From Nemertoderma westbladi (lineage: Eukaryota > Animalia > Xenacoelomorpha): a DNA stretch of 64,000 nt. The stretch lies in NCBI GenBank assembly GCA_032718475.1, contig JAUCBJ010009103.1, positions 260,733-324,732 of the forward strand, in the 5' to 3' direction. Both the position numbers and the translations under genes were made by a program. Below, in pieces: positions 2,672-58,391 of the stretch (positions within the stretch are counted from its first letter, which is position 1; the number at the start of each line of letters is the position of its first letter). The notes beneath the pieces were generated by a model. That model saw only the letters and a program-made list of their open reading frames with translations, had not been told where the DNA came from and searched no databases.

Positions 2672-4080
2672 TAATTATTTCAAACTTTAAAGTTCATATA
2701 CAGTATATATCATATTTGATCACTCTATTATATACATTTATTTTCTTAATATTGCGTTGCTAATTTAGACTTAGAATCTGTTGTATTGCCGATCAATTAA
2801 TTGTGTAATTTACTGCGTACATTAATTTCTACTGTAATTCTAAAATAATTACCGGTAATTGAATTACGTGTATTAATTAATATTCCGTTATTACCATTAC
2901 AATACCTAAACGGTGGCAGTGATCACTAGCACCTCGGTGCTACTCGCTGTCTCCATCCATCTTAATTCTTCTTCATACAGTATTTTTATGTTGAATCAAT
3001 TAAGTTGATGTATTAATGGAAAATAAATTTAATTGATTGATTGCAGGGGCAGCCGGCAGGCCTACTAAACTCAAACTGTAATACAACACTTAGTTAGACC
3101 TACTGCTGCTGTACTGAAGAAACTTAACTGCAGTTAAAGACCAGACACACTGACACAAGATAACATAACAGTCAGACAGTATCATATGGCAGTATGGTTC
3201 AGTTCAGCCAGACTGCAGACAGCCTGACAGCGGTGTACTTTAGTCAGTACATCTGTAGATCAGTAGATGCTGTAATGCAAACTACTGCACTAAGCACTAG
3301 GCCTACTGCCAGACTGCAACTGAAACTATATTGCTGCATATATGGCATTGGAGCATGCCAATTGCTGAATTGTGGAGTGCATGGTATGACTGTATTATGG
3401 TGGTGGCAAAAATACCGGTACTTCTGTACTTTTTGCTTTTATTTAAGCCAGCAAGCATCTCAATGTGCTGCAGGCTGATAGGCAGATTACAGGGATAGGC
3501 CTATCAGCCTATACTCAGATACTAGTCAGCTAGTACTGTCAGACTGTAGTAGTACTAGTACAGTAGTACTGCTGTACTGTAGTTGTACCGGTAGTACTGT
3601 ACCCTACCACCTACTACCGGTACCTGGGTACTCTGAAATAATTGTTAAAGCAGTTCACCTTCGTGGGCAGGTGGGGCCTTCTTGCAACACGGCAACACCA
3701 AACACCTGAACACGCACTGACAGACTGACGTTTGAAGGTTTCCTGGTTTCTTGTACCGGTAGGGGCTACGGCTAGGGCCTACAATAATACCCAAATACTG
3801 CTGCACTCTCAGACCTGCAGACTGTAGGCCTATCTCTGTATCTGCCTATGTATTAGAAGACAATTTGCGGAAATCTGTATTACATATAGGCAGGCAGGTA
3901 GGCCTATTACTGTATTACGATACCGGTTGCCGGTAGCCACTGACAGACTGGATAGTAGGCCTAGTGTCTGACTGTAATACAGTAATAGCCTAATACAGTA
4001 GCCTAGGCCTAATACTGTCTGACTGTAATAATATACAGATATAACCTTCATACCGGTGCCGCTATAATATAGTAATAATA

Positions 4081-4461
4081 ATGTCGTCCTCGTCAAGATT
4101 GAAGACTCGAGAACTTCGAGGAAAGAAGAAAGAGGAGCTAATGAAACAATTGGATGAGCAGAAGCAAGAGTTGTCGCAGTTACGGGTAGCCAAGGTAACG
4201 GGTGGGGCCGCCAGCAAACTCTCCAAGATCCGAGTAGTGCGTAAAAACATCGCGAGGATTTTCACAATAGCTCACCAAACGCAGAAGGAGAATCTCCGAC
4301 TCTACTACAAGAATAAGAAGTTTACCCCCAAAGATCTCCGTCCGAAGAAGACTCGAGCAATGCGGCGAGCGCTTACGAAACACGAGCTGAGTCTCCGAAC
4401 TTGCAAACAACAGAGACACAGCGCCCAGACCAAGATGAGGAAGTTCGCGTTGAAGGAATAA
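4081..4461 (+). CDS. RPL35: 60S ribosomal protein L35 (uL29), intronless CDS
   Basis: 126 aa with [14 protein letters not shown]...[26 protein letters not shown]...[16 protein letters not shown]; AATAAA at ~4569. Confidence 0.97.
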
Positions 4462-6689: not shown

Positions 6690-7717
6690 TAAGCTTTCTC
6701 TTAGTGCAGTGGGTGTTCAAAAGCACCGAATGCAGACTGGACAGACTGATGAGGTTCTGATTAAGGACATGGGGGGCGGTTGGCGACTCGCCCTCGCTTC
6801 AGCAGATGATAGTGGCAATGGTGGAATTGGTCTATTTATGAATCCAACTGCACATGCAGCATTGGACAAAATAGAAATCTCTAACCGCATCATCTGTTGC
6901 CACTTCTCATGTTCTGGAAGACTGGCTAAGAAGTTTCCTAAGGTGGTTCTGATTGTGTGCTACTCTCCAACTAGTGTTGCCCCTGTAGAGGAGGTGGAAA
7001 ATTTCTACCACAATCTACAAGCAGCTACTGATGGAGTGGATTAGCATACATTATTAACATTCCTGGGAGACTTTAATGCAAGTCTGCATCAATCACCTAC
7101 ATCACCCTGGGTCTATAGCAATAGTGTTAACCGAAATTCCATCCATCTTCAGGATTTGATCTCTGGAAATGGATTGTTTTCGGATGGAACCCAGATCAAG
7201 AAGCGAACTGGAAAGCTATGGACTCATAGTGAACCCAGTGGTCATAAGTCCCAGATAGACCATATTCTGTTTCGTAGGAAATACAGGAGCTCTATACAAG
7301 ACTGTAATGCATTTACACTACGACCCTTCTCCAGTGATCACCGCCTTATTGTGGCCAAGGTAAGACTTAGTCTGCGTGCTAGCAGAACAACGAAATCTGC
7401 CTTGCCGCGGCATGACTGGTCCTCTCAGTTGCAACAGCCAAGTGTGAGATCCAGCTTCACACTACAGCTGAGCAACAGGTATGAGGTTCTTGCCTCTAAG
7501 GCGGCAGATCAATGTGAGGGCTATACTGCCTTCACAGAGGCAGTTAAGTTAGCAGCTGCAGAAACAGTTCCTGTATACCCTCGAAACAGGAAACGGGCCC
7601 CCTGGACTAACAACAAAATTCAGAAGTGCCGAAATGACCTCTACAAGGCGCCGAAAGAGTCCCGACTCACACAGACTACAGCGGTCAAGAATGCAGTTAA
7701 GGCTGCATCTAGGTCCC
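6690..7717 (+). pseudogene. LINE (RTE-like) apurinic endonuclease domain, decayed and cut by an LTR insertion
   Basis: GGIGLFM, CYSPT, LGDFNA (after an in-frame stop at 7042), SQIDHIL and SSDHRL motifs. Confidence 0.88.
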
Positions 7718-8946
7718 TGTTCGAGCTTTTAGACCTTTAGCAGTTTAACCTGCCAATTTTAGGTGTCTTTTTGTATATCAATTATTTAATGTACTGAAGG
7801 TACATCAGCCGAAGCCAGCCTGTGCGCGACCATTCACCCACAGTTAAGGGAGACTGGATTCGGATGCTTTGATAGTGATTGCAGTGTAGACCTACTGTAT
7901 TATTCGATTGATCGTTAATATATAATCTCTGACAATATATTTACTTTCGGGGAAATATTAACAGTTCCTTTAGGACGTGGCGCTTTAAGTATAAAACAGA
8001 GTTATGACTTATACTAATCACAACTGGATGGCTACTGAGTTTCGTAAAAGGCGCATTCTTTAGGAGATGCTTTATTAACCTTCACACTACTTCACACGAC
8101 TATTCACACTACTGCGCACTGATCTGCCGACCGTCACTGAATTTGATCATATATAAGGAGGATCGCAACTGACACATGTAGGGATTATGAAATAGCATTC
8201 AATTCACACAAAAACCACTATAATGTAAGTCGCAGTTGCTACCGGTAAACCTGTTCCTCTAACCTTTAGTAATCAAAGAGATTGAGGGTTTTATGATTAT
8301 TCATCGGTATTCTCCAAATATATCAGCAATATATACCAACATAACACAGTAACACCAATTAATAACAGAATCAAATAATGCGGTGAACAGTCAGTATGTG
8401 TAGTTGAATCGCGTTGCGTAGTGCCGCGGTGTGGCGATTCAGATATGAAGTATGATTCAGCAATGATTCAGTAGTTGAATTGCGTTGCGTAGTGCCGCGG
8501 TGTGGCGGTGTGCTGCGTTAATAGTTTTACGTTCCTTTAATCAAAGCCATCTGATGTTTCTGAGGTTTAGGTCAAAGTCTGAAACTTCCACAGAAGTACA
8601 GAAGAATCCTAAGCCGGTGTTCTGGGCTTAGAAAAGATACACACTGACTGAATTGCGTGGGTTTCTGTAGAGCACTGTCCAACACAAAGTGAAAATCGCT
8701 CTGATTGGCTGAGCCGAACAAAGAACAAAGAGAGATTCAGGTTCCGCGTTGGCAGTAAATCAGCTGACAGATTGCGTCATCTGAGTCATCTTCTAGAGTA
8801 TTAAGCGAATTGCGGCAGAATGGCTAGTTATGTCCACTAAAGCATGCATACAGACATAACGGGTAAAAATGGCTTATGTCCGCTAAAAGCACCTACACAG
8901 TACATTGCGGAGAAAATGACTGGTTATATCCGCAAAAGCTTTTACA
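7718..8946 (-). repeat. 3' LTR of element 1 (1229 bp)
   Basis: TGTTCGAGCTTTTAGACC...CGCAAAAGCTTTTACA, matching 13433-14035 plus 17471-18010. Confidence 0.92.
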
Positions 8947-31900: not shown

Positions 31901-32518
31901 AATACTACCCAGATCCAAATCTGTGCTACTGGGAAAGGAGGTAGGTTAGTTGGGCAAAAGTAGGGGTTGAAATACTACCCAGATCCAAATCTGTACTACT
32001 GAGAAAGGAGGCAGGTTAGTTGGGCAAAAGTAGGGGTTGAAATACTACCCAGATCCAGATCTCTACTACTGGGAAAGGAAACAGGTTAGTTGGGCAAAAG
32101 TAGGGGTTGAAATACTACTCAGATCCAAATCTGTACTACTGGGAAAGGAGGCACGTTAGTTGGGCAAAAGTAGGGGTTGAAATACTACCCAGATCCAAAT
32201 CTGTACTACTGGGAAAGGAGGTAGGTTAGTTGGGCAAAAGTAGGGGTTGAAATACTACCCAGATCCAAATCTGTACTACTGAGAAAGGAGGCAGGTTAGT
32301 TGGGCAAAAGTAGGGGTTGAAATACTACCCAGATCCAGATCTCTACTACTGGGAAAGGAGGCAGGTTAGTTGGGCAAAAGTAGGGGTTGAAATACTACCC
32401 AGATCCAAATCTGTGCTACCGGTACTGGGAAAGGAGGCAGGTTAGTTGGGCAAAAGTAGGGGTTGAAATACTACCCAGATCCAGATCTGGGAAAGTTGGC
32501 AGGTTAGTTGGGCAAAAG
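22876..32518 (+). repeat. 70-bp exon/donor-derived satellite, left arm (~138 units)
   Basis: Unit AGTTGGGCAAAAGTAGGGGTTGAAATACTACCCAGATCCAAATCTGTACTACTGGGAAAGGAGGCAGGTT, with 62- and 76-bp variants. Confidence 0.98.
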
Positions 32519-33065
32519 TGTTAGCTTATTCAATCCCGCTAACACCCCATAAAAGTTAAGCCGATAAGCAATATTGGGGGCCACGAGATTGGGTAATCAC
32601 CAACTCGTGTCACCCCAATAAAATGGAAAGGAGAAACACAATGAGGGTCAGGGGCCAAACCCCTAACCCAGAGAGAACAGGTGGAGTGAACGGGAACACT
32701 CCAAAGGGCGCCAACAAGGGTATCAACCAATCAGAGGGGGGAAAGGCATCGATTAGGTAGAGTAACAAGGCCAACCCGTGCAATATAGCCAGTTGGCAGT
32801 AATCATTTCATTCAGTTATCTCAGTATCATATTGGTGCTAGTTAGGTTAGTTAGTTTAGCTAGGGAAGGACCGAGACTTTAATTACCGTATCCCGCCTTC
32901 CGTATACGACAACATTATCCATATCTATGCTTATATCTATATACCCGTACAACCGATTATTATATACGACGAACGACACGAACTCTTTTTACCTTTCATA
33001 CACACGGCGGGGACGCGTGAACTAAACAACCGGATAAACCGGGATCCTTCCTGGATCCCGTCACA
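32519..33065 (+). repeat. 5' LTR
   Basis: TGTTAGCTTA...CCCGTCACA; CCAAT (~32727) and Inr-like TCAGTT (~32813). About 2 substitutions vs the 3' LTR by eye. Confidence 0.97.
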
Positions 33066-33163
33066 GTAATTAAATCCGTCGGTGGCACAGTAATTAAAAC
33101 TCAGAGCTGCCGCCCTAGCTAGCTAAACCCAGCGACTACCAGCCACCAATCGAACCAACCGAG

Positions 33164-36100
33164 ATGAGTCAGTCGGGAGAGACGACGCCGACGCGGACCC
33201 CGGACGAAGAATTAACGATCCGCGAGGCCGCAACCAGGCGGTACAGGCCCACAACGCCGGACCCATCGGTAACGGGTCATCCGGCAGCTCAGGATGAGGG
33301 GGGCCGCCTGGAACCCGAGGTCGAGCCGAGAGAAGGAGAGAGCGAGACGGAGGGAGACAGAGACGAGTCGACACGAGACGCGGGTCGACGTACTGATGTC
33401 GCCGGCCAGCCACAGGCCGAAGGCGACGAGCGGCCCACCGAAACGGCGACGGTGGGGCTGACGGTACGACGCCGGACCCGAAGAGACGGAGGAGATGTCG
33501 GTACCGATGTCGCCGGCCAGCCACAGGCCGAGGGCGACGAGCAGCCCACCGAAACGGCGACGGTGGGGCCGACGGTACGACGCCGGACCCGGAGAGATGG
33601 AAGAGAGGTCGGCGACGAGGATGTCGGGGTTTCTGATCGACTTCGACGGGCCTACAACGCGACCCGGAGACTATTAGAGGAGGCCAGAGGAGGGGCGACG
33701 ATAGACAAGGTAAAACTAAAGAAAGGACTAGGTGAGTCGAATAGACACTTTTATTATCTAATGCGCTTCGGGCAAAGAGAACTGGCCAAGGAGAGAGCGA
33801 GAGGGGTTGCCGAGGAACTGTATGACTTATGGCGGTATAGGGGTATGGAACCTAGCGTAGTGTACGTAGGGCCGTACTTAGTCGATGCCCGGGGAGTAAA
33901 ATTAGTGGGTTGGGAGAGACCTGAGGAGGACGAATCCGAGGTTAACCCCGAGGATTCGGCCTCGTCGGTCGGAGGAAGTTCCGGGAGGCGGGGGAAAGTC
34001 AGTAGGTCGGGAAGGCGGAGGGAGTCCGTTACAACCGATAAGTCTGCTACATCCTCCGTAAAAGAAAGACGGGTGAGAGAGATAAATGCCACGTACCGTC
34101 TCGATTTAATAGAGCGAGGTCAAAGGGAAGTAGGTAGACGGTTAGAGGAGGGGAGAGTGCTGTTAGAGAGGGAAATGGCGTTGATTAAGGAAACCGGAGA
34201 GAGGGCCGAAAGGGCCGCGAGAAGCCTTAGGGAGTGTGAGGAAGTAGGGAGGAAGGAACAAGAAGAGCGCGAGGCGAGAGAGAAAAATGAGCGCAAAGAG
34301 CGTGAGGCGGAACGTAGGGAACGTGAGGCGAAAGAGGAAAACGAGTGCAAAGAGCGCGAGGAGAGAGAGGAAAACGAGCGCAGAGAGCGTGAGGCGAGAC
34401 AAAGGGAGGGGGCTAGAAGAGAGTTGGAATTGGCCGAACGGGACGCACGGGAGTGTAAGGAGAGAATGGCAAGGAAGGAGTGTGAGCAAAAGGAACTAGA
34501 GAAACGTCAAGGTGAGCTTACAGGGTACAAAGCTATACACACGCGCGAACGGGAATTGGCACGAATAGGGGCGTCTGAGAGTGGGGCTAGCTCGAGTATT
34601 TTCGAGGAGCCAGGGGCCGTGGATACATTTATTAATACCCCACTTACAGGGACCGCACGACAGACCCAAGACTGGTGTGACCGTACGGGCGGGGGGGGGG
34701 GGGGGGGGGGTAATAATAATGCTATAGTAGACGTCATTAATATTAATAGTACCGTATTGGATAACCCTAATCCTTTTATTGCAGCAAATAATACTTTACC
34801 TAGTAGCAGTGATTTAAATTTAAATACAAATAATAATTTCAATTTAAATGTGCAAAATAATCCGAATAATAATTTAAATTTAGAAAACAATAATAATTCA
34901 AATAATTTAAGTAATGATCCAAGCCCGAATTTACAAAATAATTCAAATGATTTTGGTTCAAACGAACAAATTAATTCCGTTTCCAATGTGGGTGCTATTA
35001 ACGTGAACACGTCGGGCGTGTATGGCCAGGCAGATGGGGGCCTGGTAGGCCATATAATTGGTAGGCCGGAAGTGGCGGGATTGAGCCAACCCAGAGAGGG
35101 CCTGGTAGGCCACGTAGTTGGTAGGCAGGGAGCGGCTGGGTTGGGTAGACCCAGTGAGGGCCTGGTAGGCCACGTAGTTGATAGGCAGGGAGTGGCTGGG
35201 TTGGGTAGACCCAGCGAGGGCCTGGTAGGCCACGTAGTTGGTAGGCAGGGGGTAGAGGGCCTGGTAGGCCACGCAATAGCAGAGGGAGAGGCGGGGGTGA
35301 ATAGACCCGACCGCGGTAGGGTTGACGTGTCGACGAGAGAGGGATGTGGTAGCGGGATGAGAGATAGCGAAGTTAGATGTGGCGAGTGGGGGGGGGCTAC
35401 AAGAGCCCCACAACAGCGAGTTAGCGGCGAAAGGGGGGGGGGGGCAGAGAGTGCTCCGCAGCCGTCAGCGGATAATGCGCGGGCCGAAATAGGTAAACCG
35501 CAACACCCGGCGACGGAGAGTAATAGGGGGATTGCGAGTATCCCCAACGGCGTGCGACCGAGCAGAGAGAGACAGGTTGACGTCGTGAGAGGGCGGACGA
35601 AGCGTCGAGCCCGATCAGAAGAGGGAAGAAGAACAGTGGGGTTTAACCGGGAGGTCGACGAGAGATCTCACGAGCGGGAATACTACACTGAAAGGAGAAG
35701 AAGAGAAGACAGTAGTAAAAGTATCGCCGCGAATGATAGAAGAGCGAGGACGGATAGCGAGCCGTCGGTAGTCGAGATGAGAACGGAGAGTCAGTGGGGT
35801 CGGACTCCGGGAGATTGCCGTCGCACCGGAGAGATGCGACCTGGTGAGGTGCATTACGCGCCGATGGAGGGGTACGCGATATACCGGTACGAAGATGAGA
35901 ACAGTAGAGAGGGGGGGTCGAAGAGAAACTTTCCGACGGAATATACCTACCAATCGAGAGTACGGTAGCCACGGGGAGGACTATTTGAGAAGAATAAACT
36001 TCGATCCCGAGCGACACATGCAGACTGTAGGACATACTGTAGGCCTTACTGCACATACCATAGGCCATACTGAGAGAGGCAATGTAGGCGATAGGATAGC

Positions 36101-36323
36101 GCGGACAACAGGATTAAACCCGGAAGTCGCGGAATACATACCGGCGAGTAGGCCAGAAGCTGATAGGCCTATACCGGTACCAGCACAGCAGTATGACTAC
36201 AGCATGCAGGGACATAACATATACCCAGGGGAGGGGGGAATTATTGCGGATAGGTGTATGGGCCCCAATATATTAACATCAACCCCAGTACCAAACATAC
36301 CGGTGGGGGGGGGGACAGGGTGA
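33164..36323 (+). CDS. Long low-complexity Gag N-terminal region (frameshifted at G runs)
   Basis: 934-aa ORF plus 159-aa continuation; 40-aa duplication, E/R coiled coil, Asn-rich tract, 20-aa GLVGHVV repeats. Confidence 0.7.
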
Positions 36324-36381
36324 CATTCCCCCATCACAATATCAACAATATACCCCGATAGGAGCAAGAACAACGAGACCC

Positions 36382-38394
36382 TTGGATGAAAATAGGTCGT
36401 GTGACACAGAACTATGGAGGGGGCCACTACCCCCGATGACATACCCAAGTCAAAGAAAATCAAGAAATAGGACGGACGAACCGCGCCAGACAGGAGAAAC
36501 TATACAGCACCCATCGAATCCATTGGAAGCGCAGGCGATGGGGATGGCCACGTTGATCGATGCGTTGAAAACGAGGATCGAGTTACCACCCGTGGAACCA
36601 TTCAAGTTCGATGGGAGTAGGCCGGAAGAATATCTACAGTTTCGGCGCATGTATAGTAACGAAATACTAACAAAAAACTTGACGCAGGCGGAGTGCCTAA
36701 AGTATCTGCAAGTATACACGGGAGGCCCAGCATACGATATCGTGAGGCAATATCAAGGAATAGAGGGCGGCTTCACGACAGCATGGCGGGCACTGGACAG
36801 GGAATACGGGCACCCGGCCAAGATCATCAGACAGACACTGAGAGGCATAACATCGGGTGGCCTACAGGATAATCCCGTTAGCATTAAGACGTTCGCTAAC
36901 AAAGTCGAAAAGGCGCTAATCGTGCTGAAGACGCTAGACGCGCCATACGAGCTCAACGCGTCCAATAACATCACCACGATAGCGCAGGCACTACCGAACT
37001 GGCTGCGCAACAAGTGGAGGAAGATCGCTTTCTCCATTCGAGACAAGAAGGGTGCGGAACCGGGTTTAGAAGAAATGTCAAGCTTCTTAAACTACGAGGC
37101 TGAACTAATAACTGACCCAGTCTATAGCGAAGATAGCCTGGGAAAGGGACCGAAGACGGATTACCATAGACCGAAACCAGAGCACAATACATCAAACGCA
37201 TTACCGAGGCTCAGGCAATCATTGCCATATGCAGCGACGCAGGGGACTGCAAGTCCACAGCTAGCCGAAGATAAGACAACACCATGGAACGGACAGGGAA
37301 ACAATAACAACACGAATAAATATAACCCCAGTACGTCCAGTAGGCCGAATCCAAACAATAAGAATAGTAGGGACTTTGGTACAAACGCAGCTGCGATACG
37401 CAATGCGCTGTATAAGGAGGGCTACGACCCAAAGAGCAAATGCCAGCTACACGCAAATGCGCTTCATCAAACCATGAACTGCAGGTACTGGCAGGCGCTA
37501 CCTAGGCAAGATCAGATAGATTATGCGTTGAGCAATAAAATCTGCTCGCGATGTGTGATGAGTGGACATAGAGCAAGGGAATGCAAGGAGAAGCCGGTCA
37601 AGTTTGGTCAAAGGAGAGGCCAAACGATGGCGACGAGCACAGTAGGGGCGAAGAAGAGAGGAACGGTGTTACTTGGAGTAGTACCCGTGCGAGTGATTGG
37701 GGAAGGCAATCGATCAGTAACAACACTAATGCTGGTTGATAGTGGAGCTGCCTTCACATTAGTCGAGGAATGGGTGGCCGAAGAGATAGGATTGAGAACG
37801 AGGCCAAGCAGAATGGCGGTAACAACCATCTCTAGCAAAGATGAGATCCTGGAGATGAGAACAGGACGGTGCGCAATTGCAGCAGTGGCACCGGGATGCG
37901 ACTATGGGGCAACCATCGACCCCATCCAAGTGATAGAGTCAATTAATATCAATGCCAGGCGGCCAACCAACATCGAGGTCGAGCAATATAAATTCCTGGA
38001 CGACATTGACTTCTCAATCCCAGACGTGGACGTTAGGAAGGTATCCATCATAGTAGGAATGGATTGCCCAACGGCCCACGAAAGAATGCAAACGGTCTTC
38101 GGCGAAGACAAGCAGTGTGACCCGGTGGCGATATTAACACCATTCGGGTGGACGCTGAGTGGCCCAATCAAGACCAAGATACCATTTAGGATGTCGGAGA
38201 CATCAGGATGCATGTTCGCGGGAACAATGCAGGAAATGGGTGATGAGGGAGCAGAGGAGCAGCTTAAAAGACTGCTCAGACAAGATTTCGAGGGACTGAA
38301 AGAGACCGGGGTCAGGACCTCGGTAGAAGACAAGCAGGCTTTACAAAGCGTGGAGGAATCGATGACAGTGCGACTGAGGGGCGGTATACTATAG
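36382..38394 (+). CDS. Bel/Pao Gag core, zinc knuckle and aspartic protease
   Basis: PFKFDG..EEYLQF...LKYLQVYTGG...AWRALDREYG (DUF1759-like), CSRCVMSGHRAREC, LVDSGA, TPFGWTLSGP. Confidence 0.92.
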   Translation: MDENRSCDTELWRGPLPPMTYPSQRKSRNRTDEPRQTGETIQHPSNPLEAQAMGMATLIDALKTRIELPPVEPFKFDGSRPEEYLQFRRMYSNEILTKNLTQAECLKYLQVYTGGPAYDIVRQYQGIEGGFTTAWRALDREYGHPAKIIRQTLRGITSGGLQDNPVSIKTFANKVEKALIVLKTLDAPYELNASNNITTIAQALPNWLRNKWRKIAFSIRDKKGAEPGLEEMSSFLNYEAELITDPVYSEDSLGKGPKTDYHRPKPEHNTSNALPRLRQSLPYAATQGTASPQLAEDKTTPWNGQGNNNNTNKYNPSTSSRPNPNNKNSRDFGTNAAAIRNALYKEGYDPKSKCQLHANALHQTMNCRYWQALPRQDQIDYALSNKICSRCVMSGHRARECKEKPVKFGQRRGQTMATSTVGAKKRGTVLLGVVPVRVIGEGNRSVTTLMLVDSGAAFTLVEEWVAEEIGLRTRPSRMAVTTISSKDEILEMRTGRCAIAAVAPGCDYGATIDPIQVIESININARRPTNIEVEQYKFLDDIDFSIPDVDVRKVSIIVGMDCPTAHERMQTVFGEDKQCDPVAILTPFGWTLSGPIKTKIPFRMSETSGCMFAGTMQEMGDEGAEEQLKRLLRQDFEGLKETGVRTSVEDKQALQSVEESMTVRLRGGIL

Positions 38395-38396
38395 GA

Positions 38397-41300
38397 ATGG
38401 TATGGAAATTACCGAAGATACCACTGCCCGATAATAGAGGGATGGTACTCACGAGACTCCGCAAGCTGAAACAAACACTAAAACGGAGCCCCGAGAAGAA
38501 TGAGTACATCCACAGAACGATTAAGAAGTACGTCGAGAAAGGATGGGCCGTGGAGTTACCGGTCGACGAACCGAACACGGACAGGACATATTACCTGCCA
38601 CTCCACGTGGCTTTAGACCCAAAGAAAGGTAAACTGCGGATGGTAGTTGACGCATCGGCAAAGACCAACGGAAAATGCTTAAACGACTACCTGTTAGAAG
38701 GCCCAAACATATACAACTCGGGCATAGAGGTGCTACTTAGATTTAGAAATGGGAAACACGCCTTCACGTGTGACATAGAAGGCATGTTCAACCAAGTCCG
38801 TGTAACGGAGGAAGATAGCGACAGTCAACGCTTCTTATGGTATAACGGCGAGGAAGAACCGTCGATAATACCGGCATATAAGATGGTAGTACAAAACATG
38901 GGAGCCAAGTCGTCTTCATTTACGACGACTATGGCAGTGAGAGATACAGTGAAAGGGAAGGAAGATAGATACAGCACTAGGGCCGTCGATATGATTCGAC
39001 ACGGCTTCTACGTAGACGACGGAATGGAGTCTGGAAATACGGTTAAGGAGATACTGGACACGGGGCGCGAGGTTCGCGACATCCTAAAAAGATCCGGCTT
39101 TAACCTGACCAAATTCCAATCCAGTTCGGAAGAATTTATCAAGGCGATAGAGGACAAGAGGCCAGAATCGACCATGGATAATCCCACAACAGCCAAAGGG
39201 CAGGACATGGCGAATAAGAGAACAGAATCTCAACAGAAGGCATTGGGAATCGTGTGGAACAGAGAGACAGACGAACTGAAGTATCAGCTGAGCCAGGAGG
39301 GCGCAGACATCCACACGAAGAGGGGCTATGTATCGTATATAGCAAGGATATACGATCCCCTAGGCCTAGCATCCCCATTATTAGTCACGGGGAAACAGAT
39401 ACTCAAGAGAGTATACAAATTGAAGGATGAGTGGGACGTAGAGGTACCAGAGGAAATCAAGAAACAGTGGAGTAAGTGGACAGGAGACTTGGAGAAGATG
39501 GGAACATACAACATGCCACGAGTGTATTTCCCGGATGGGAACATGACGAATCTGGACCTACACATGTTCTCCGATGCGTCGTTGGAGGCGTACGGAGCGG
39601 CACTCTACTTAGTACAACGAGAGGGGGCTCATAAGCCCAGACTAGCCTTTAGCAAAGCAAAGTCAACGCCGCCAGATTCAGCATCAGTCCCCAAGTTAGA
39701 ATTGACAGCTGCGAGACTAGGAGTTAGAGCCACAGCCTACCTAGTGGATACTATTCCCAACATAGTGGAGACACACTACTGGACGGACTCCATGGTAGTG
39801 CTTGGTTGGCTACATAACGAAAGGACGAGATACCCAATATTCGTCGCAAATAGAGTGGACGAAATAAGGGCGACCACAGAACTGGAAAGGTGGCACTACT
39901 GCCCAACGGACGAGAACCCAGCGGACTTGTTGTCGAGGGGCGTGGTACGCCACACTTTCTTGATGAAGGAAGTATTGTGGCAACATGGGCCACAATTTCT
40001 GAGCGATAAGGAGGCCTGGCCGCCGATGAGAAAGGTGGACCCGGGCTCAGAAGTAGTGTCAGAGGGAGAAGAGGGAGATTCAGAGGGAGAAGAGATATAC
40101 TCCCAGATGGTGAGGGAGATTAGGGACGTGCAACCAAGACGAGAACTGTGCGATAACCCGACGGATAAACTCCTCAGCTACAGTTCTAGTTGGTATAAGA
40201 CCAAGAAACTAGTGGCGTACTGGAGAGCCTTCGGGAATTTCCTCGCGGGAGTTGGCAAAGACAAGATCAGGACATCCATAGATCTGGAAGGAGCGGCCAA
40301 GGCAGTCATCCGCTATGAACAACGGAAGAACTATGGCGACGAGGTAGAACGCGTCGGAAACCAACAGCACCTCCGACGGGACAGCGAGCTGATCACGCTG
40401 TCGCCACAACTTAATGACGACGGGATTCTAGTAATGAATTCTAGGGTGGGATACAACAACAGCATAATCGTACCACCGAAACCCATCATCATTCCAACAG
40501 GATCGCCAATAGTTCACCAGATTATCTGGGACTCCCATAAGTCGATATTGCACGGGGGCACCAACCAAACCCTCACCGAGATAAGGTGGACCTTTTGGGT
40601 CAAACAGTTGAGGAAGAAGGTAAAAGCGGTGGTGGGGCAGTGCCAGACCTGCCGACGAGCGAAGAAGGAGCGAGCCATACAAGAGATGGCGCCACTACCA
40701 GCGAGTAGAGTAAGACAGCACGACCCGCCATTTACGCATTGCGGTGTGGACATGTTCGGGCCAATAAAGATCAAGGTGATGCGGCACACGGAGAAGCGCT
40801 ACGGTATAATCTTCGTATGTAACAACACGCGGGCGGTAGGGATAGAACTCGCCCAAGATGCAACCGCATCAGCATTCATTAATGCCTTAGAAAGGTTTAG
40901 AGAACGCAAAGGTGGGACGATCGCAGTGATATACAGCGACAACGGCACCAACTTTGTGGGCGCACAGAATGAGATGGCAGAAGCCTTGGACATCTTGGAA
41001 GGGGAGGAAGTCAGGGCGGCCATGAGACAACGACAAGTAAAGTGGGAAAGAAGGACGCCGTATGCACCACATACACTAGGATGCGTCGAGAGACTGGTGG
41101 GCAGTTCAAAGCGTCTAATGACGAAGCTAATGAACACCCACATGGTCACTGAGGACGTCCTGAGAACAGTATTGGCGAAGTGTGAGGGTATCATTAATAG
41201 CAGACCGCTATATCCGGAGAATGATGACCCTGAGTCACTAGACGTGCTGACGCCTAGCCATTTTCTAATGGAAAGGCCAGCTACCATCGATATGCGGGGT

Positions 41301-41645
41301 GTAGATCCAGACGACATACACTCCCGCCAGAGTTGGAAAGTCGCTAAAGCAATAAGCGCCGAGTATTGGAGGAGGTGGGTCGAAGAATACCTGCCCACGC
41401 TCCATAAAAGAAGCAAGTGGAGGAAGCCGAATAGGGAGTTAAGAGAGGGAGATCTCGTAATCGTTACGGATGATACTATCATCAACAACCAATGGCGGTT
41501 GGCGAGAGTTGTAGGCACTTACTCCGACAAGGACGGAAGAGTCCGATCGGTAGAAGTGCGGATAGGTGGTAAGATAGGTGCGAAGGACAGAAAAACCTAC
41601 AGGAGAGCTGTAGGGAAATGCTGTCTGTTAGAAGGGGCACCTTAG
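38397..41645 (+). CDS. Bel/Pao Pol: RT, RNase H, integrase
   Basis: YYLPLH, LRMVVDAS, DIEGMFNQV, FYVDD, IYDPLG, MFSDAS, PKLEL, NPADLLSRG, HHCC finger, GVDMFGP/SDNGTNF/VERLV, WRRWVEEYL. Confidence 0.97.
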   Translation: MVWKLPKIPLPDNRGMVLTRLRKLKQTLKRSPEKNEYIHRTIKKYVEKGWAVELPVDEPNTDRTYYLPLHVALDPKKGKLRMVVDASAKTNGKCLNDYLLEGPNIYNSGIEVLLRFRNGKHAFTCDIEGMFNQVRVTEEDSDSQRFLWYNGEEEPSIIPAYKMVVQNMGAKSSSFTTTMAVRDTVKGKEDRYSTRAVDMIRHGFYVDDGMESGNTVKEILDTGREVRDILKRSGFNLTKFQSSSEEFIKAIEDKRPESTMDNPTTAKGQDMANKRTESQQKALGIVWNRETDELKYQLSQEGADIHTKRGYVSYIARIYDPLGLASPLLVTGKQILKRVYKLKDEWDVEVPEEIKKQWSKWTGDLEKMGTYNMPRVYFPDGNMTNLDLHMFSDASLEAYGAALYLVQREGAHKPRLAFSKAKSTPPDSASVPKLELTAARLGVRATAYLVDTIPNIVETHYWTDSMVVLGWLHNERTRYPIFVANRVDEIRATTELERWHYCPTDENPADLLSRGVVRHTFLMKEVLWQHGPQFLSDKEAWPPMRKVDPGSEVVSEGEEGDSEGEEIYSQMVREIRDVQPRRELCDNPTDKLLSYSSSWYKTKKLVAYWRAFGNFLAGVGKDKIRTSIDLEGAAKAVIRYEQRKNYGDEVERVGNQQHLRRDSELITLSPQLNDDGILVMNSRVGYNNSIIVPPKPIIIPTGSPIVHQIIWDSHKSILHGGTNQTLTEIRWTFWVKQLRKKVKAVVGQCQTCRRAKKERAIQEMAPLPASRVRQHDPPFTHCGVDMFGPIKIKVMRHTEKRYGIIFVCNNTRAVGIELAQDATASAFINALERFRERKGGTIAVIYSDNGTNFVGAQNEMAEALDILEGEEVRAAMRQRQVKWERRTPYAPHTLGCVERLVGSSKRLMTKLMNTHMVTEDVLRTVLAKCEGIINSRPLYPENDDPESLDVLTPSHFLMERPATIDMRGVDPDDIHSRQSWKVAKAISAEYWRRWVEEYLPTLHKRSKWRKPNRELREGDLVIVTDDTIINNQWRLARVVGTYSDKDGRVRSVEVRIGGKIGAKDRKTYRRAVGKCCLLEGAP

Positions 41646-41799
41646 TGGAGTTAGAGAAGAGTTTAGTCGTCCAAGCTTTGGACTGAGGGGGGTGGGATTG
41701 AGGGCGAGACGCCCTTCCCACACATAAAAAGTAAAATAAAAAATAAAAATAAAATAATAGTACATAGTAGGTATGCAGTTAGTAGGCAGAAGTTAGTCA

Positions 41800-42335
41800 G
41801 TAAGAAGGTACGTAGTACCTAGAGTTAGTTAGTTAAGAGGTACGTAGTACCTAGAGTTAGTTAGTTAAGAGGTACGTAGTACCTAGAGTTAGTTAGTTAA
41901 GAGGTACGTAGTACCTAGAGTTAGTTAGTTAAGAGGTACGTAGTACCTAGAGTTAGTTAGTTAAGAGGTACGTAGTACCTAGAGTTAGTTAGTTAGTTAG
42001 GAGGTACGTAGTACCGCTAGTTAGGAGAGAGTTAGAAGGTACGTAGTACCGTTAGTTAGAGAAGAGTTAGAGGGTACGTAGTACCGTTAGTTAGAGAGTT
42101 AGAGGGTACGTAGTACCGTTAGTTAGAGAAGAGTTAGAGGGTACGTAGTACCGTTAGTTAGAGAGTTAGAGGGTACGTAGTACCGTTAGTTAGAGAAGAG
42201 TTAGAGGGTACATAGTACCGTTAGTTAGAGAGTTAGAGGGTACGTAGTACCGCTAGTTAGAGAGTTAGAGGGTACGTAGTACCGTTAGTTAGAGAAGAGT
42301 TAGAGGGTACGTAGTACCGTTAGTTAGAGAGAGAG
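41800..42335 (+). repeat. 16-copy ~32-38 bp tandem repeat between pol and ORF3
   Basis: Core GGTACGTAGTACC separated by (GTTA)n/GA-rich spacers. Confidence 0.92.
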
Positions 42336-42835
42336 AGAGTAAGAGGTAGAAGGGTATATAAGATATAGATATTAGTTAGCAGTTAGTAGCGAGAGGGGGG
42401 CATATGAGTACAGTTGGGTAAATCGTGTGGCCACGCGACGCACACTGCTGTACTGCACAGGCCCACAGAGTAGGCCAGAATGTGGATTAGAGAATAGAAT
42501 AATCCATAGGCAATAGTAAGTAGTAGGACAGTAGAATTAAAATTATACTAAAAATAAATAGATATATAAAAATAAATAGAATAGGGCTGAAAGTTACAAA
42601 TTATGGCAACACTAGGAAAGTTATTCTGGAACATAATAAAAGTAACGGACAGAAATCGAAATTAGGGTGTATTTACTAGCTTCAGAATTAATTAGTAATA
42701 ATTTAGGCTAAAAGGGCGCAGTTAAGTAAGGAATAGGCCATTATCGGACCGTACAGAACATCTTAAGATACATCACTCATCTGTATTGCGCCTTGGTAAG
42801 GCACCACCTTACAGGTGAGCGAGTGAGTGTTCGGA

Positions 42836-45373
42836 ATGGCGAGCAAATTGATCAGAAAGAGAAAGGCGGAGTTAGGAGGAAAGGAGATACTGGTGGATTT
42901 CACCGAGAGGCATCCGGAAGAGAAGACGAGAGGATACTACGAGAGGTTGGAAAGGGGTCACGCGGCACGAGCGCTGCAGGATCACTTCCGGGAGATGCAC
43001 GAACAGCGGCTGGTCGGGACGCCGTCGCTGGACAACGCGATCTTCCAACACTTCCACTACGTGGTGAAAGGGGACGAGGCGAAGTTCGGGATTCGGAAGT
43101 ACCCGAGGGAATCACCGAGGAAGGACTGGAAGAGATTCATAGAGTCCGTCAACAGGGGAGGATATATGATCCTAGACGACGAGGGAACCGTGGAAGACGA
43201 GGCGGGTTCGAGACGAGGATCGGCGGGGTCGGCCAGGACCATACTCCTACATTTGGCCGCGCCAAATGGGGACATCTTCTTATTCGATCTAGGAACGTAT
43301 GGGAAGAAGGACGGGCCGAAATTAAACCGGTTGCCGAAAGCGGTACAAGTCTTGGTAAGAGAGAAGTCGACGACGAAAGTAGGATCGGCGATTCGCGAGG
43401 ATGCGGAGAGAATCATCGGTCCGGACGCCACCAACCTCCTGGATATGCAGAAGGTCTTTATGGCTATGACGGCACCGGATGGGTTGGGGGTAGTCGAAAA
43501 CACAGGCCAATGCGGGGCGGTGGCAATGGGCCAACTATTGGGGCTCGTGTGCCACAAACCGATGGACTGGGGGAAGTTCAGGGAAGAATACGGAGCAGAA
43601 CTAGCGAACTCGCTAAAGTGGGGAGCGAGACCGGGAAAGCAAGAGGTATATCAATTCCGCAGAGGAGCGATAAAGGTATATCAGAAGCGATATATCCTGC
43701 AGGAAGACTGGATGATGATAAGTTTGCTTAACTTATTTATGACCGTGGTTATCGAGAGGGAACCAGCGGCATTTCTGTTATCGGGATCACCCCTAAGCTA
43801 CAGGAGAGCCTTTAAAATGGCCTTCGACGGTCTGGTAGACCACCCGGGGCTGAAGGGCGAGTCGGTGTACTACAACAGCCGACATCTGGAAGACGGGGAG
43901 ACAGATACGCCGTATCAGAGATGGGAGCAGCTAGAAACGGATAGACGAGAAGCAAAGCGACTGGAAGAAGTCGCTAGACGGGAGAGGATAGAAGCAGAGG
44001 AGAGGGAGGAGGAGGCCAGGACGCAGAGTTACGGCTTCGAGGAACAGGCAGGCTTAGACGAACTTCATTGGACTTCGTCAGGGAGTTCGGGGGAGTCTCT
44101 AGGGCGAGAACTGGGATGGACGGTGGGATCACCGAAACAGTCGACGTCGGGGTTGCAAGAGATGCCCATACCAGCGGGCGCCGAAGGCGACCAACCGCCA
44201 AGGAAGTTAAGGGAACTAGAGGGATGGAGAGCTACGGGCGAGAGCCAAGGCGGGAAGGGACATAGTGGATCCATCGGGATACCGGGGTTGGAGCCACTGC
44301 CAGAGGAGGAGGAGGACGACGACGAGTTCGGAGGGGTGCCGCCCATCGAGAGGATTGGCCACTCGGACACGGACTGGGTTGGCGGGAGGGTGGTGACGGC
44401 CAGTGGGGCGAGGGCCTTCTGGAACAGATCCGGCAAGCAGACCTGGGTGCACGAGGAGCCGGCGATGGATTTCGCGGGGAGCACTATCAGGTTGGGCGAG
44501 CAACCGGGGACGGCACCACGGATAGTATTCGGGGAGACGATGCCCGAGAGGGGCGGAGAGATCGACGTAGACAGGGACACCAACGTGGAGAAGTTCGCCT
44601 ACCAGCGACTCCACAGACCGCGGAGATCGCTTGGGACGAAAGACGACGTGGGGCGGGAGACATTGGTACTCGGTTGCGACTACTGTGGGAGACAGACCCA
44701 CCAGGAAAGGAGCTGCTTGTACCGGTTCCAAAAGGGAACCTTTTGTCTCTACTGCCGAGAGCCGAGCCACAGGATGGGGGCGTGTCCACGGTTGCATAAC
44801 CGATGTCCAAAGTGCAACTTTCGGGGACACTACGGACGCCAGTGCGACTGGATGGACGACGAAGAGAAGTTCAGAAGATTCGAGGAGTGGGCCGACGTCG
44901 GGGCCATGACGCGCCAGCGCATGAAGGCCCAGGAGTTTAAGTGGGGTTTCTTCCTTATCAATCAGGAGGCTCACATGGAAATCATAAAGCGGAGGCTACC
45001 GTTTACCTATCAAGAGGTAGCAACGGCGGCGTCGTATGCCGGAGTGATGAACACACAAAGATATTTGGACAGGTGGACGCCACAGAACCGAGGGGAGTTT
45101 AGGGATTTCTTGGCGGAGCACGTGCCGCGAGCAATGAAGATGATCCTATGGGACGCCACCAGATGGAGACAACAGGGCCACTCTGAGGGGCCACTGGCGA
45201 AGCGATATCGGGCACTAATAACACCAGCGCCCAAGGAGCCAACAACCGGAATCAGCAGGGAGGTGGCGGCGAAAGTCCGAAAGCAGAAAGCGGATCCCAG
45301 AGGAGCGGTGGTAACCAAGAAACGACCCAGGGAAGAGGACGCCAGGGGGAACTATCCCCAGAGGAACAGATAG
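42836..45373 (+). CDS. Retrotransposon ORF3: DEDDy 3'-5' exonuclease-like domain plus three CCHC zinc knuckles
   Basis: ILDDEG (ExoI), LLHLAAPNGDIFLFDL, LPKAVQVLVREKSTTKVGSAIREDAERI (ExoII), LLDMQ, KWGARP, QKRYILQED (ExoIII-like); three CX2CX4HX4C at 44675-44845. First ATG at 42836. Confidence 0.8.
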   Translation: MASKLIRKRKAELGGKEILVDFTERHPEEKTRGYYERLERGHAARALQDHFREMHEQRLVGTPSLDNAIFQHFHYVVKGDEAKFGIRKYPRESPRKDWKRFIESVNRGGYMILDDEGTVEDEAGSRRGSAGSARTILLHLAAPNGDIFLFDLGTYGKKDGPKLNRLPKAVQVLVREKSTTKVGSAIREDAERIIGPDATNLLDMQKVFMAMTAPDGLGVVENTGQCGAVAMGQLLGLVCHKPMDWGKFREEYGAELANSLKWGARPGKQEVYQFRRGAIKVYQKRYILQEDWMMISLLNLFMTVVIEREPAAFLLSGSPLSYRRAFKMAFDGLVDHPGLKGESVYYNSRHLEDGETDTPYQRWEQLETDRREAKRLEEVARRERIEAEEREEEARTQSYGFEEQAGLDELHWTSSGSSGESLGRELGWTVGSPKQSTSGLQEMPIPAGAEGDQPPRKLRELEGWRATGESQGGKGHSGSIGIPGLEPLPEEEEDDDEFGGVPPIERIGHSDTDWVGGRVVTASGARAFWNRSGKQTWVHEEPAMDFAGSTIRLGEQPGTAPRIVFGETMPERGGEIDVDRDTNVEKFAYQRLHRPRRSLGTKDDVGRETLVLGCDYCGRQTHQERSCLYRFQKGTFCLYCREPSHRMGACPRLHNRCPKCNFRGHYGRQCDWMDDEEKFRRFEEWADVGAMTRQRMKAQEFKWGFFLINQEAHMEIIKRRLPFTYQEVATAASYAGVMNTQRYLDRWTPQNRGEFRDFLAEHVPRAMKMILWDATRWRQQGHSEGPLAKRYRALITPAPKEPTTGISREVAAKVRKQKADPRGAVVTKKRPREEDARGNYPQRNR

Positions 45374-46092
45374 GTTCCCAGGGCCGGGGGAGAGAAACTG
45401 AGACTTGGACGTGGTACGCCTGGAAGGCGCCGCGTGGGACGTACGAACTATTAAGTACAAATTAAGCTGATGCAAATAATTAAATAAGTGCAATTATATG
45501 TACGTACGTAGTGATCAGTAGTTTAGCAATAAAATATACGTTCGGAGTAAGTACTATAGTCATACAACCTTTCTCAATTAGCTACTGGGACTGGGGGGAT
45601 AACTGACTATGGCACTATGGACGAGACACCAGACGATTTCACACTTCTTGAGTGCGACGGCACAAGAGGGGGGGGGGGGAGATTCGTCAGAAGGGATGAG
45701 GTAGTCGAAGTGGGGTTGAGGGACGGAGTAATAGTGCGAAGTGCGGAGAGAGTGCGGACGCAATTCTAGTGTGGGGGGGGGGGGGAGAATAAGAGGCTGA
45801 GTGAGGGACGAGGAGGTCCGAGGGTATGAGAGAGTTAGGGTGAGAGTGGAGAAGAGATAGGGCGAAAGTGTTGGGGAAACAAAAGTCGCGTGAGAGGTGA
45901 GCGCGATCGGCCCGACATGGGACGCCAGGCATACAGGGTAGCGTTATCATACCCATAGGGAGCGGCCTGGAAAGCCGGCTCCGAGAGAAAATAATTCCAC
46001 CCCACACCCGATACTAGATCGGGATCCAGCGGGATTGTAGCGCACTTAAGGTGGATGCTATCTTCTCACCGGGAAGATAGCATGGGGGGGAG

Positions 46093-46639
46093 TGTTAGCT
46101 TATTCAATCCCGCTAACACCCCATAAAAGTTAAGCCGATAAGCAATATTGGGGGCCACGAGATTGGGTAATCACCAACTCGTGTCACCCCAATAAAATGG
46201 AAAGGAGAAACACAATGAGGGTCAGGGGCCAAACCCCTAACCCAGAGAGAACAGGTGGAGTGAACGGGAACACTCCAAAGGGCGCCAACAAGGGTATCAA
46301 CCAATCAGAGGGGGGAAAGGCATCGATTAGGTAGAGTCACAAGGCCAACCCGTGCAATATAGCCAGTTGGCAGTAATCATTTCATTCAGTTATCTCAGTA
46401 TCATATTGGTGCTAGTTAGGTTAGTTAGTTTAGCTAGGGAAGGACCGGGACTTTAATTACCGTATCCCGCCTTCCGTATACGACAACATTATCCATATCT
46501 ATGCTTATATCTATATACCCGTACAACCGATTATTATATACGACGAACGACACGAACTCTTTTTACCTTTCATACACACGGCGGGGACGCGTGAACTAAA
46601 CAACCGGATAAACCGGGATCCTTCCTGGATCCCGTCACA
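46093..46639 (+). repeat. 3' LTR
   Basis: Near-identical to 32519-33065; preceded by GGGGGGGAG PPT. Confidence 0.97.
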
Positions 46640-46644
46640 AAAAG

Positions 46645-56863: not shown

Positions 56864-57551
56864 ATTGACTGTTGATTAACTAATACTTATCAGCTGACCG
56901 GTAGCCGGCCTATGCAGTATAGTAACTTTAACATGTAATTATTGTTTATGTTGTCTAAATATTCCAAGATATTTGGAGGCATTAATATTTGATAACAACG
57001 AATTGTTTGTTCTTCACATCAGTATTGGTGAAGTGTGGATGAGCTATATTATTTTGTAGGTGTAGCCTTAACTTGGTAGAATATTCATACGTTATTCATG
57101 ATCAAAATTACCCCAAAGTCAGCAGTTTATGGTGTATAGTGTAATGCAGTCAGTCAGTCATGAAATGAAAAATGGTGTTGCCTACATCTAGGTAGGTGCG
57201 CGTGTAGTGTGAATGTAGGTAGTACCATAGATATTAATGTAATTTATGTGCCAACTTGCAGTAACACGGTTGTCAATCAGGACGTAACGGTACTCTCCAT
57301 GGTACAATGCGGTACACCAGCATGCAGGGCAGGCCCACACATGTTATGAAATATGAAAATTTGATATTGTCTCATATACGGTGACTGTCCCGCACTATAA
57401 CTCACCAATTCTATAGGTAACGACACAGTTGCGCTGATGGCATACTCTCGGGCTTGAAAACCACTCGCAATATTACGTAGTATGTGATATTGTTACTGTT
57501 TGTTACAATCATATCGGTTTATTCCCCAAATATGTTTATCTCTCCCTCCAG

Positions 57552-58391
57552 GGTTGGAAACCAGCAGAAACCGGTAGTGTCACCTCCACCATACTGCAGC
57601 ACACCTGCGGCGGCGCTTCCCTCGACAAATTCTACCAAGACCCAAGAAACAAAGGGGGACACAGTTTTCGGTACCAGTGGCTCATCCTTCGCCAACGATT
57701 ACTCCAGTATCTAGACGCCCTTGAGTGGATGCTGGCAACCGGACAGGGTGTCGTTCTAGAACGATCCATATTCTCCGACTGGGTGTTCTTCGAGGCCGCC
57801 AAACGGTGCGGTTACTACGGCGACAGGGCTCGCGAGCTCACAGACTTTTACTACTTGACTCGTCGCGCTTTCAACCACGAAGTCATATTCCCCCACACTA
57901 TGGTCTACCTCGATCTGCCCCCTGAGCAGTGCTACGAACGGGTGATGTCGAGGGGGAAGAAATACGAGAAACTTATAGAGCTGCAGTACCTCAAAGAGTT
58001 AGATGATGTTTATAAGAATACTTTTATTGAACGATTGAAGCCCCATGTTAACATGTTGGAGTTCGATGTATCAGAAGGTGGAGATAAGATTCGAGATATC
58101 GGGTTTGCGCTTGAAGACATCGATTGGGAGTCCAAACATTACCTTCACAAAGGTTTCGAGTTTCCCTTCCAGAGTCAGTTGAAGATGATGAGGCATTACG
58201 TGTCGCACAAGACGTTGCAGCTCCAGAAGTTGGATCTCCCGGGATACAATGTGCCGGAGATAGCGTGTCGCGCTGACATTAACCTGGAAGATGCCGAACA
58301 CGATGTTGCTAAGAAACATCCCGAGTACTGGTTCGATAAAGAACTCGTAGACTTGCGGGATCCGAACTGTTGGAAGAAAATGTTTTGGTAG
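57552..58391 (+). CDS. NDUFA10: NDUFA10 exon 3 (terminal); spliced product 446 aa
   Basis: Pyrimidine tract TCTCCCTCCAG|; SLDKFYQDPR...QRLLQYLDALEWMLATGQGVVLERSIFSDWVF...PHTMVYLDLP. Confidence 0.95.
   Translation, partial: GWKPAETGSVTSTILQHTCGGASLDKFYQDPRNKGGHSFRYQWLILRQRLLQYLDALEWMLATGQGVVLERSIFSDWVFFEAAKRCGYYGDRARELTDFYYLTRRAFNHEVIFPHTMVYLDLPPEQCYERVMSRGKKYEKLIELQYLKELDDVYKNTFIERLKPHVNMLEFDVSEGGDKIRDIGFALEDIDWESKHYLHKGFEFPFQSQLKMMRHYVSHKTLQLQKLDLPGYNVPEIACRADINLEDAEHDVAKKHPEYWFDKELVDLRDPNCWKKMFW

Follow-up and report, generated by a model that had tools for sequence, protein, structure and literature searches.

An LTR retrotransposon of the Bel/Pao superfamily in the genome of Nemertoderma westbladi carries, directly after its 5' LTR, a primer-binding site (PBS) complementary to a segment of that same LTR. 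This self-complementary PBS, which lacks the usual TGG of a tRNA site, is a real feature of the element. That the primer derives from the element itself, taken over all variants of the idea, appears probable. The variant we prefer, with a probability of roughly 0.55, is modeled on Tf1: the primer would be a ~73-nt fragment from the 5' end of the RNA, cut after position 32886 of the window (the whole stretch of 64,000 nucleotides analyzed here). Bel/Pao is one of the three large LTR superfamilies in animals. If the reading is correct, a large branch of it would be independent of host tRNA, using a primer that is internal, unlike the first bases of the RNA, and that in many families is formed via splicing of the LTR. 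It would also explain elements annotated as lacking a PBS, offer a quick diagnostic for classification and predict the RNA 3' end at one defined base. Self-priming has been demonstrated in Tf1 and predicted in a few other lineages; for Bel/Pao, no report of it turned up in the literature searched.

The element and its primer-binding site

The self-match lies at the 5' end of an LTR retrotransposon of 14.1 kb (32519-46639), the parts of which are as follows:

32514..32518 (+): left copy of a 5-bp target-site duplication, with the right copy at 46640-46644
32519..33065 (+): 5' LTR of 547 bp, TG...CA, differing from the 3' LTR at 2 positions
32782-32788 (+): TATA-like box, by reading of the sequence
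32878..32886 (+): candidate 3' end of the self-primer, ending in AC
33066..33074 (+): PBS, directly abutting the LTR (offset 0)
33090..33098 (+): repeat of the PBS 9-mer, rarely used in longer folds (probability 0.02)
33164..35968 (+): ORF1, 934 aa, located 5' of gag and without a Pfam family
36277..38394 (+): gag-protease frame with DUF1759 and aspartyl protease
38268..41645 (+): pol, with RT (YVDD), Pao RNase H region (PF05380), integrase and DUF5641
42836..45373 (+): ORF3, 845 aa, with an exonuclease-like domain at ~43170-43710 and a zinc-knuckle region at ~44675-44830
46075..46092 (+): polypurine tract
46093..46639 (+): 3' LTR of 547 bp, with the primer segment repeated at 46452-46460

The Pfam domains, namely DUF1759, aspartyl protease, Peptidase_A17, the integrase zinc finger and DUF5641, place the element in Bel/Pao; PF03564, PF05380 (E 1.5e-40), PF17921 and PF18701 are all above the Pfam cut-off, and the order is PR-RT-RH-IN. 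It likewise has the structural traits of Bel/Pao (Belpaoviridae), with TG...CA LTRs, a polypurine tract and a 5-bp target-site duplication. In this copy the reading frame changes from gag-protease to pol near 38.3-38.4 kb, and pol contains acidic motifs that are presumably those of an RNase H. The closest of 378 homologs with E<=1e-50 are 35-36% identical, which indicates a divergent lineage. The two differences between the LTRs, together with the 5-bp duplication, point to a young insertion, the site of which is an array of a 70-bp satellite. In Logan contigs from four DNA runs (at most three samples) all 30 bins of the element are covered with many variants, as expected for a multi-copy family. 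ORF1 is of low complexity with internal repeats of 111, 33 and 60 bp, which is unusual for Bel/Pao, and a 32/67-bp tandem array occupies 41799-42335 between pol and ORF3.

An earlier note on this DNA had described a PBS pairing with the LTR, and all its coordinates hold upon a recheck of the sequence and the LTRs. The segment 33066-33074 is an exact 9-nt reverse complement of 32878-32886 and of its 3' LTR counterpart 46452-46460, and the proposed second site is present as a 13-nt repeat at 33086-33098. As had also been claimed, no TGG adjoins the LTR: the first is at offset 17 (33083), as against offsets of 2-7 in 7/7 TGG-type relatives drawn from the best 80 of 621 stretches (see below). This offset and the variability of the TGG among family copies rule it out as a tRNA site. 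No tRNA genes were found in the window. The suggestion that pairing extends to an ACCGA stands in part: 32870-32874 can pair with 33079-33083, but the extension is not exceptional, with 11/19 swapped controls being as good. It is available to the 5' LTR, while the 3' LTR differs at 46448, and a minor family variant disrupts it.

Of 20,000 dinucleotide shuffles, 0.67% gave a match of at least 9 nt with the offset fixed at 0, and 2.1% did so when offsets 0-3 were allowed; among 870 cross-element pairs, 34 attained 9 nt at offsets 0-9 (57/870 with loose donors). The match is above chance and modest on its own (shuffle p 0.007-0.02), so that the comparative data carry the case. The core duplex here is the weakest of 21, at -5.0 kcal/mol versus -7.9 to -16.2. 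The segment ends 179 nt before the LTR end, and the predicted transcription start lies 64 nt upstream of the segment.

Within the family, variants were counted at a threshold of 10% or more. Among the variants listed, the variable positions number 1/57 in 32845-32901, 26/150 in 32902-33051, 0/25 in 33052-33076 and 10/21 in 33077-33097. The PBS itself (33066-33074) has no variant of at least 10% among those listed, and the sole listed variant in the primer segment is 32882 A>G, which accounts for 64-100% of the depth and still pairs with the PBS through G-U. At 33022 the family has C, T or G, and ATTAAA makes up 22-28% of the depth at this site. In family alignments the LTR ends are much deeper than the leader; for instance, aligned depth in run X1 falls from 43,439 to 2,767 (~15-fold) immediately after the 9-mer. 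This excess may come from solo LTRs or other subfamilies.

Covariation of the PBS with the LTR among relatives

A metagenome scan by pol alignment yielded 69 loci from the best 80 of 621 confirmed stretches. We scanned the 50 with upstream sequence and scored 29, of which 22 have a non-TGG and 7 a TGG-type PBS. The 21 dropped loci were 7 near-duplicates, those with too little LTR (L014, L053, L054 and L033) and 10 for which the LTR end could not be placed. Searches of viral contigs gave 0 loci and 1 weak locus.

The earlier note had proposed looking across families for covariation between the PBS and the LTR segment, and such covariation is evident. Among these relatives, from the best 80 of 621 stretches, the PBS matches its own LTR over 10-15 nt in 19/22 non-TGG loci with strict donors, and in 20/22 when the 3' LTR copy of L060 is used, each match being element-specific. 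The two remaining loci (L026 and L016) both have incomplete LTRs. Only 10/870 cross pairs reach 10 nt with strict donors and 18/870 with loose donors. In the TGG-type loci of the same sample the self match is 4-7 nt in 7/7, with none at 10-15 nt. Since the match or the PBS pattern was already visible when the LTR end was placed at 17 non-TGG loci, two controls matter. Where the end came from a comparison of both LTRs, 5/5 loci match, over 15, 11, 10, 11 and 12 nt; when equal freedom in the LTR end was granted, 10 nt were reached by 32/300 cross versus 15/15 self pairs.

In 12 of the 20 self-matching relatives, again from the best 80 of 621 stretches, the match requires removal of a GT-AG intron from the LTR, and it is direct in the other 8. 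These introns, predicted from DNA, span 71-426 nt, and the downstream exon contributes 4-7 nt of the match. The 3' end of the match is AC (17) or AT (3) in 20/20 relatives and AC here, a property that the search did not require, and the match lies 46-222 nt from the LTR end in the relatives as compared with 179 nt here. The LTR copies at L020:145-326 and L020:6924-7103, which are 88% alike and perhaps belong to different insertions, differ by such an intron: the acceptor precedes the shared part in the 5' copy and the 3' copy has the joined form.

An LTR intron that would lengthen the match in the present element was sought and rejected, the best GT-AG pair giving -12.3 versus -13.3 kcal/mol unspliced with either allele. 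With the majority allele at 32882, a YAG arises exactly 4 nt ahead of the primer end, which corresponds to the splice acceptor position in the intron-bearing relatives (4-7 nt); no donor here improves the match. Judging from its position, the YAG at 32882-32886 is a possible relic of a splice acceptor. Just upstream of the primer segment, the 8-mer at 32864-32871 matches, in reverse complement, the beginning of the TGGTCC-type PBS in L022, L032 and L038; this resemblance might go back to a captured tRNA end, and chance could also produce it.

In a tree of 33 rows picked from 83, constructed without an outside outgroup or a named reference element, one branch splits the self-type from the TGG-type loci with a support of 98, and 0/500 shuffles were as clustered. 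Our element falls on the self-type side of this split (SH-aLRT 94, below the tool's star threshold; FastTree 0.98), and the 7 relatives with a TGGTCC-type PBS, from the best 80 of 621 stretches, lie across it. It groups with 5 insect proteins as its sisters (SH-aLRT 99; Aphis, Ostrinia, Parnassius, Megalopta and Halictus), next to the marine self-type clade, and forms a long branch (1.36) outside the core of that clade; these sisters were compared at the protein level. Going by PMC3118150 and PMC2774666, these groups may correspond to Pao and Sinbad/Dan.

These data bear on whether the 9-nt, AT-rich match in this element might be a coincidence unconnected to the pattern of the other lineage. 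Such a coincidence is very improbable indeed: the rate at which foreign pairs attain 9 nt and the long branch of the element leave some room for it, but the offset of 0, the AC end, a distance to the LTR end within the range of the relatives, conservation in the family and the long duplex between R and the leader (below) all speak against it.

RNA folding and the source of the primer

The TATA-like box at 32782-32788 and the Inr-like TCAGTT at 32812-32817 are presumably promoter motifs, with a predicted +1 at 32814. Relative to this start, the following features are relevant to the folding of the RNA:

32814..32877 (+): 5' part of R, collinearly complementary to the leader at 33079-33167 and reaching the ORF1 ATG
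32887..32897 (+): helix strand directly after the proposed cut, pairing with 33006-33015
33020..33026 (+): alternative pairing partner of the primer segment within the LTR; the candidate poly(A) signal 33021-33026 overlaps it
33040..33060 (+): 8-bp hairpin adjoining the LTR end

The duplex of 32814-32886 with the leader has a predicted energy of -49.3 versus -30.6 +/- 4.2 kcal/mol, with 0/1000 shuffles as good; the shuffled segment had included the 9-nt core, and without it the alignment between R and the leader still has a p of 0.005. The stretch of U3 just upstream shows no pairing signal with the continuation of the leader, 272/1000 shuffles being as good. The predicted start is thus the boundary of the complementarity, which leaves out U3; this is consistent with the 5' copy of R being the primer. 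The helix 32887-32897/33006-33015 has pair probabilities of 0.73-0.97 and 0/19 swapped controls are as stable; among the variants listed, neither strand has one of at least 10%. Those in the hairpin 33040-33060 sit in the loop (33048, 33051), leaving the stem free of them. A second helix beyond the core as a clade-wide feature was considered and set aside, as there is a tendency only, the relatives ranking from 0 to 18 of 19 and not uniformly.

Accommodating these predictions, the mechanism we favor would proceed as follows. The 5' end of the RNA, starting at the predicted position 32814, would fold onto the PBS and the leader. The ~73-nt primer would then be released by a cut after 32886; going by the Tf1 precedent, the RNase H of the element is the likely enzyme. 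The predicted junction would comprise the PBS helix, the helix 32887-32897/33006-33015 and the hairpin 33040-33060, and would be anchored by the pairing of the first ~70 nt with the leader; a cut predicted at a junction with a conserved helix and a terminal hairpin is as described for Tf1. The strong-stop DNA would measure only 179 nt, spanning the distance between the cut and the end of the LTR, and the 3' LTR would serve as template for the remaining R. Many relatives would build their primer by splicing out the LTR intron, with this element representing the intron-less form of the system. The LTR intron would survive in those relatives because the 3' copy of R templates it, the spliced 5' piece being consumed as primer.

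The same covariation would be accounted for by a primer acting in trans, namely a short LTR transcript, processed to end at 32886, that anneals to the PBS. Its source might be the 5' LTR, a solo LTR or the other RNA of a dimer, and in the intron-bearing families it would be spliced. Genomic RNA could then retain the LTR intron, the greater family depth over the LTR ends than over the leader would agree with it, and a 73-nt piece is the size of a tRNA. Nevertheless, it requires the same precise 3' cut and an additional packaging step, and the cis fold forms unaided with the allele of this copy; hence, we consider it unlikely, with an outside chance of being correct.

The folding depends on that allele. 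The probability of the PBS helix is 0.77 with the allele of this copy and 0.01 with the majority allele at 32882, the latter figure being approximate as it places one allele on the background of this copy; in folds of shorter fragments the probability ranges from 0.05 to 0.98. According to the models, a helix inside the LTR, with 33020-33026 as partner, probably explains the loss (-4.8, as opposed to -5.5 for the PBS). For this helix, the unphased allele shares of 32882 and 33022 look roughly compensatory. The majority-allele result may mean that a switch is resolved inside the particle, or that the role is structural only.

The latter points to a further alternative, in which the pairing is a structural switch controlling packaging, translation or poly(A) addition, and priming falls to an RNA of the host, for example an internal fragment of a tRNA. 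The preference of the majority allele for a helix over the candidate poly(A) signal and the predicted pairing of the RNA 5' end over the ORF1 ATG are in keeping with it, and half-tRNA primers occur in Ty1/copia elements according to the available text of PMC6317226. We nonetheless judge it rather improbable: the PBS letters vary by family and yet fit their own LTR, often across a splice junction, and the matches have the exact position and polarity of a primer. Host tRNAs would presumably not vary in this way, and none of the 3 Rfam matches along the element (E 1.5-3.9) is credible.

The ORF1 ATG region (33161-33167) is predicted to pair with the first transcript bases 32816-32822 at a probability of 0.83-1.0, a possible switch between translation and priming if the fold holds. 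An imperfect second copy of the PBS occurs in the LTR 50-95 nt before its end in L020, L030, L049, L052, L060 and L006, and is possibly a decoy or a switch. As a general feature, an LTR-internal PBS copy was rejected, with 6/21 at p<=0.05, this copy's allele not being among them.

ORF3 and comparison with known systems

The earlier note had coupled self-priming to an exonuclease: the 3' copy of R would pair with the PBS and ORF3 would trim the poly(A) end of the RNA back to the duplex. Its reading of ORF3 as 3'-5' exonuclease-like agrees with language-model features, by which residues 60-330 resemble PF01612 exonucleases (24/30 Atlas matches, score 0.93), with 171 features shared and PF01612 present on 50% of the members of that Atlas cluster. 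Alignment and structure provide no confirmation: searches of Pfam, PDB, the library and other alignment-based searches found no ORF3 homologs, and a fold search gave no match with models that were poor (single-sequence, pLDDT 32 and 39). By eye, D-x-E, D and Y-x3-E/D motifs are presumably those of the DEDDy ExoI/II/III pattern. ORF3 depth in the family is about equal to that of pol in the Logan contigs, and in silico the pairing of the 3' copy of R is just as good (-50.2 kcal/mol).

The coupling itself does not hold up. In 20/20 self-matching relatives, from the best 80 of 621 stretches, only 81-544 nt separate the end of pol from the 3' LTR, versus 4448 nt here, leaving no room for ORF3, and a search for ORF3 in 70 loci gave no match. 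Self-matching is thus independent of ORF3, contrary to the proposed co-occurrence. The primer segment had also been placed near the RNA 3' end, but a poly(A)-signal candidate lies 134 nt downstream of it here, behind the conserved helix, and AATAAA or ATTAAA occurs 6-87 nt downstream of the match in 15/20 relatives from the best 80 of 621 stretches; the segment is therefore probably not near that end. These candidates, and a complementarity that leaves out U3, argue against priming from a trimmed RNA 3' end. From its position in the sequence, the segment probably lies inside R, at both RNA ends and away from the poly(A) site. Bdelloid LTR elements provide a parallel without such a coupling: the available text of PMC5408684 describes a DEDDy-type ORF3 after pol in Juno and Vesta, and mentions neither the PBS nor self-priming. 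These elements share the position of an exonuclease-like ORF3 with ours but belong to different LTR lineages, and homolog searches found no sequence link between the ORF3 proteins. Overall, the exonuclease-coupled version, the more exotic one, is unsupported by the data and very unlikely, and ORF3 probably serves as an accessory gene with no part in priming.

The system we propose most closely resembles Tf1. In the available text of PMC7175516 and PMC4600332, the PBS of Tf1 is complementary to its own R RNA and RNase H cuts after nucleotide 11; a title cited in PMC7175516 adds that a U5 stem-loop is needed. Elements of the Tf1/sushi group (Tf1/Tf2/Tj1) have, as here, a PBS complementary to their own LTR/R RNA and no tRNA site. 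However, they are Ty3/Gypsy chromoviruses, whereas the present element is Bel/Pao by Pfam and the tree; the Tf1 primer is the first 11 nt, whereas the segment here ends ~73 nt after the predicted start; and in 12/20 of the Bel/Pao relatives the match spans an LTR intron. Self-priming has further been predicted from PBS-LTR complementarity in Tcn1 (Ty3/Gypsy) and in TAR/Houba/Osr-1 (Ty1/Copia) of plants, and thus arose in more than one superfamily, according to the portions available of PMC6317226; these are other superfamilies and hosts, and those portions show no splice-junction primer. Within Bel/Pao, Achilles has a tRNA-Tyr PBS (PMC4580426, in the part available). Such tRNA-primed elements share the superfamily, domain order and 5-bp target-site duplication with ours, in which the TGG at the usual offset is replaced by the self match. 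The C. elegans Bel/Pao element Cer7 reportedly carries its own tRNA-like primer, for which our literature search gave no confirmation. The accessible text of PMC554778, PMC3118150, PMC6238403, PMC8556966 and PMC2774666 contains no statement on the Bel/Pao PBS that we could find, and that of PMC3601003, PMC8220671 and PMC3630058 nothing on Bel/Pao self-priming. More generally, we found no report of self-priming or of LTR-intron primers in Bel/Pao in the literature searched, to which subscription papers, repeat-database notes and supplements mostly did not belong.

Taken together, a slight balance of probability lies with the following joint reading. An entire branch of Bel/Pao would have given up tRNA priming in favor of a primer that is internal, encoded by the element itself and fixed at its 3' end as AC/AT, and in many of its families splicing would gate reverse transcription. 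The system would extend beyond the marine intron-bearing clade, to a position next to insect elements, where the first 73 nt would form a tRNA-sized primer under a switch extending over both the poly(A) signal and the first start codon.

Outside the element, the surrounding 70-bp satellite amounts to ~20 kb within 22876-56863, which the insertion interrupts. Elsewhere in the window, 4045-4461 is an uninterrupted frame of the ribosomal protein L29/L35 family, 7045-7740 is a fragment of a LINE-type endonuclease, and 57438-58391 is a 317-aa open frame with a deoxynucleoside-kinase domain that is NDUFA10-like and 40-42% identical to two vertebrate matches.
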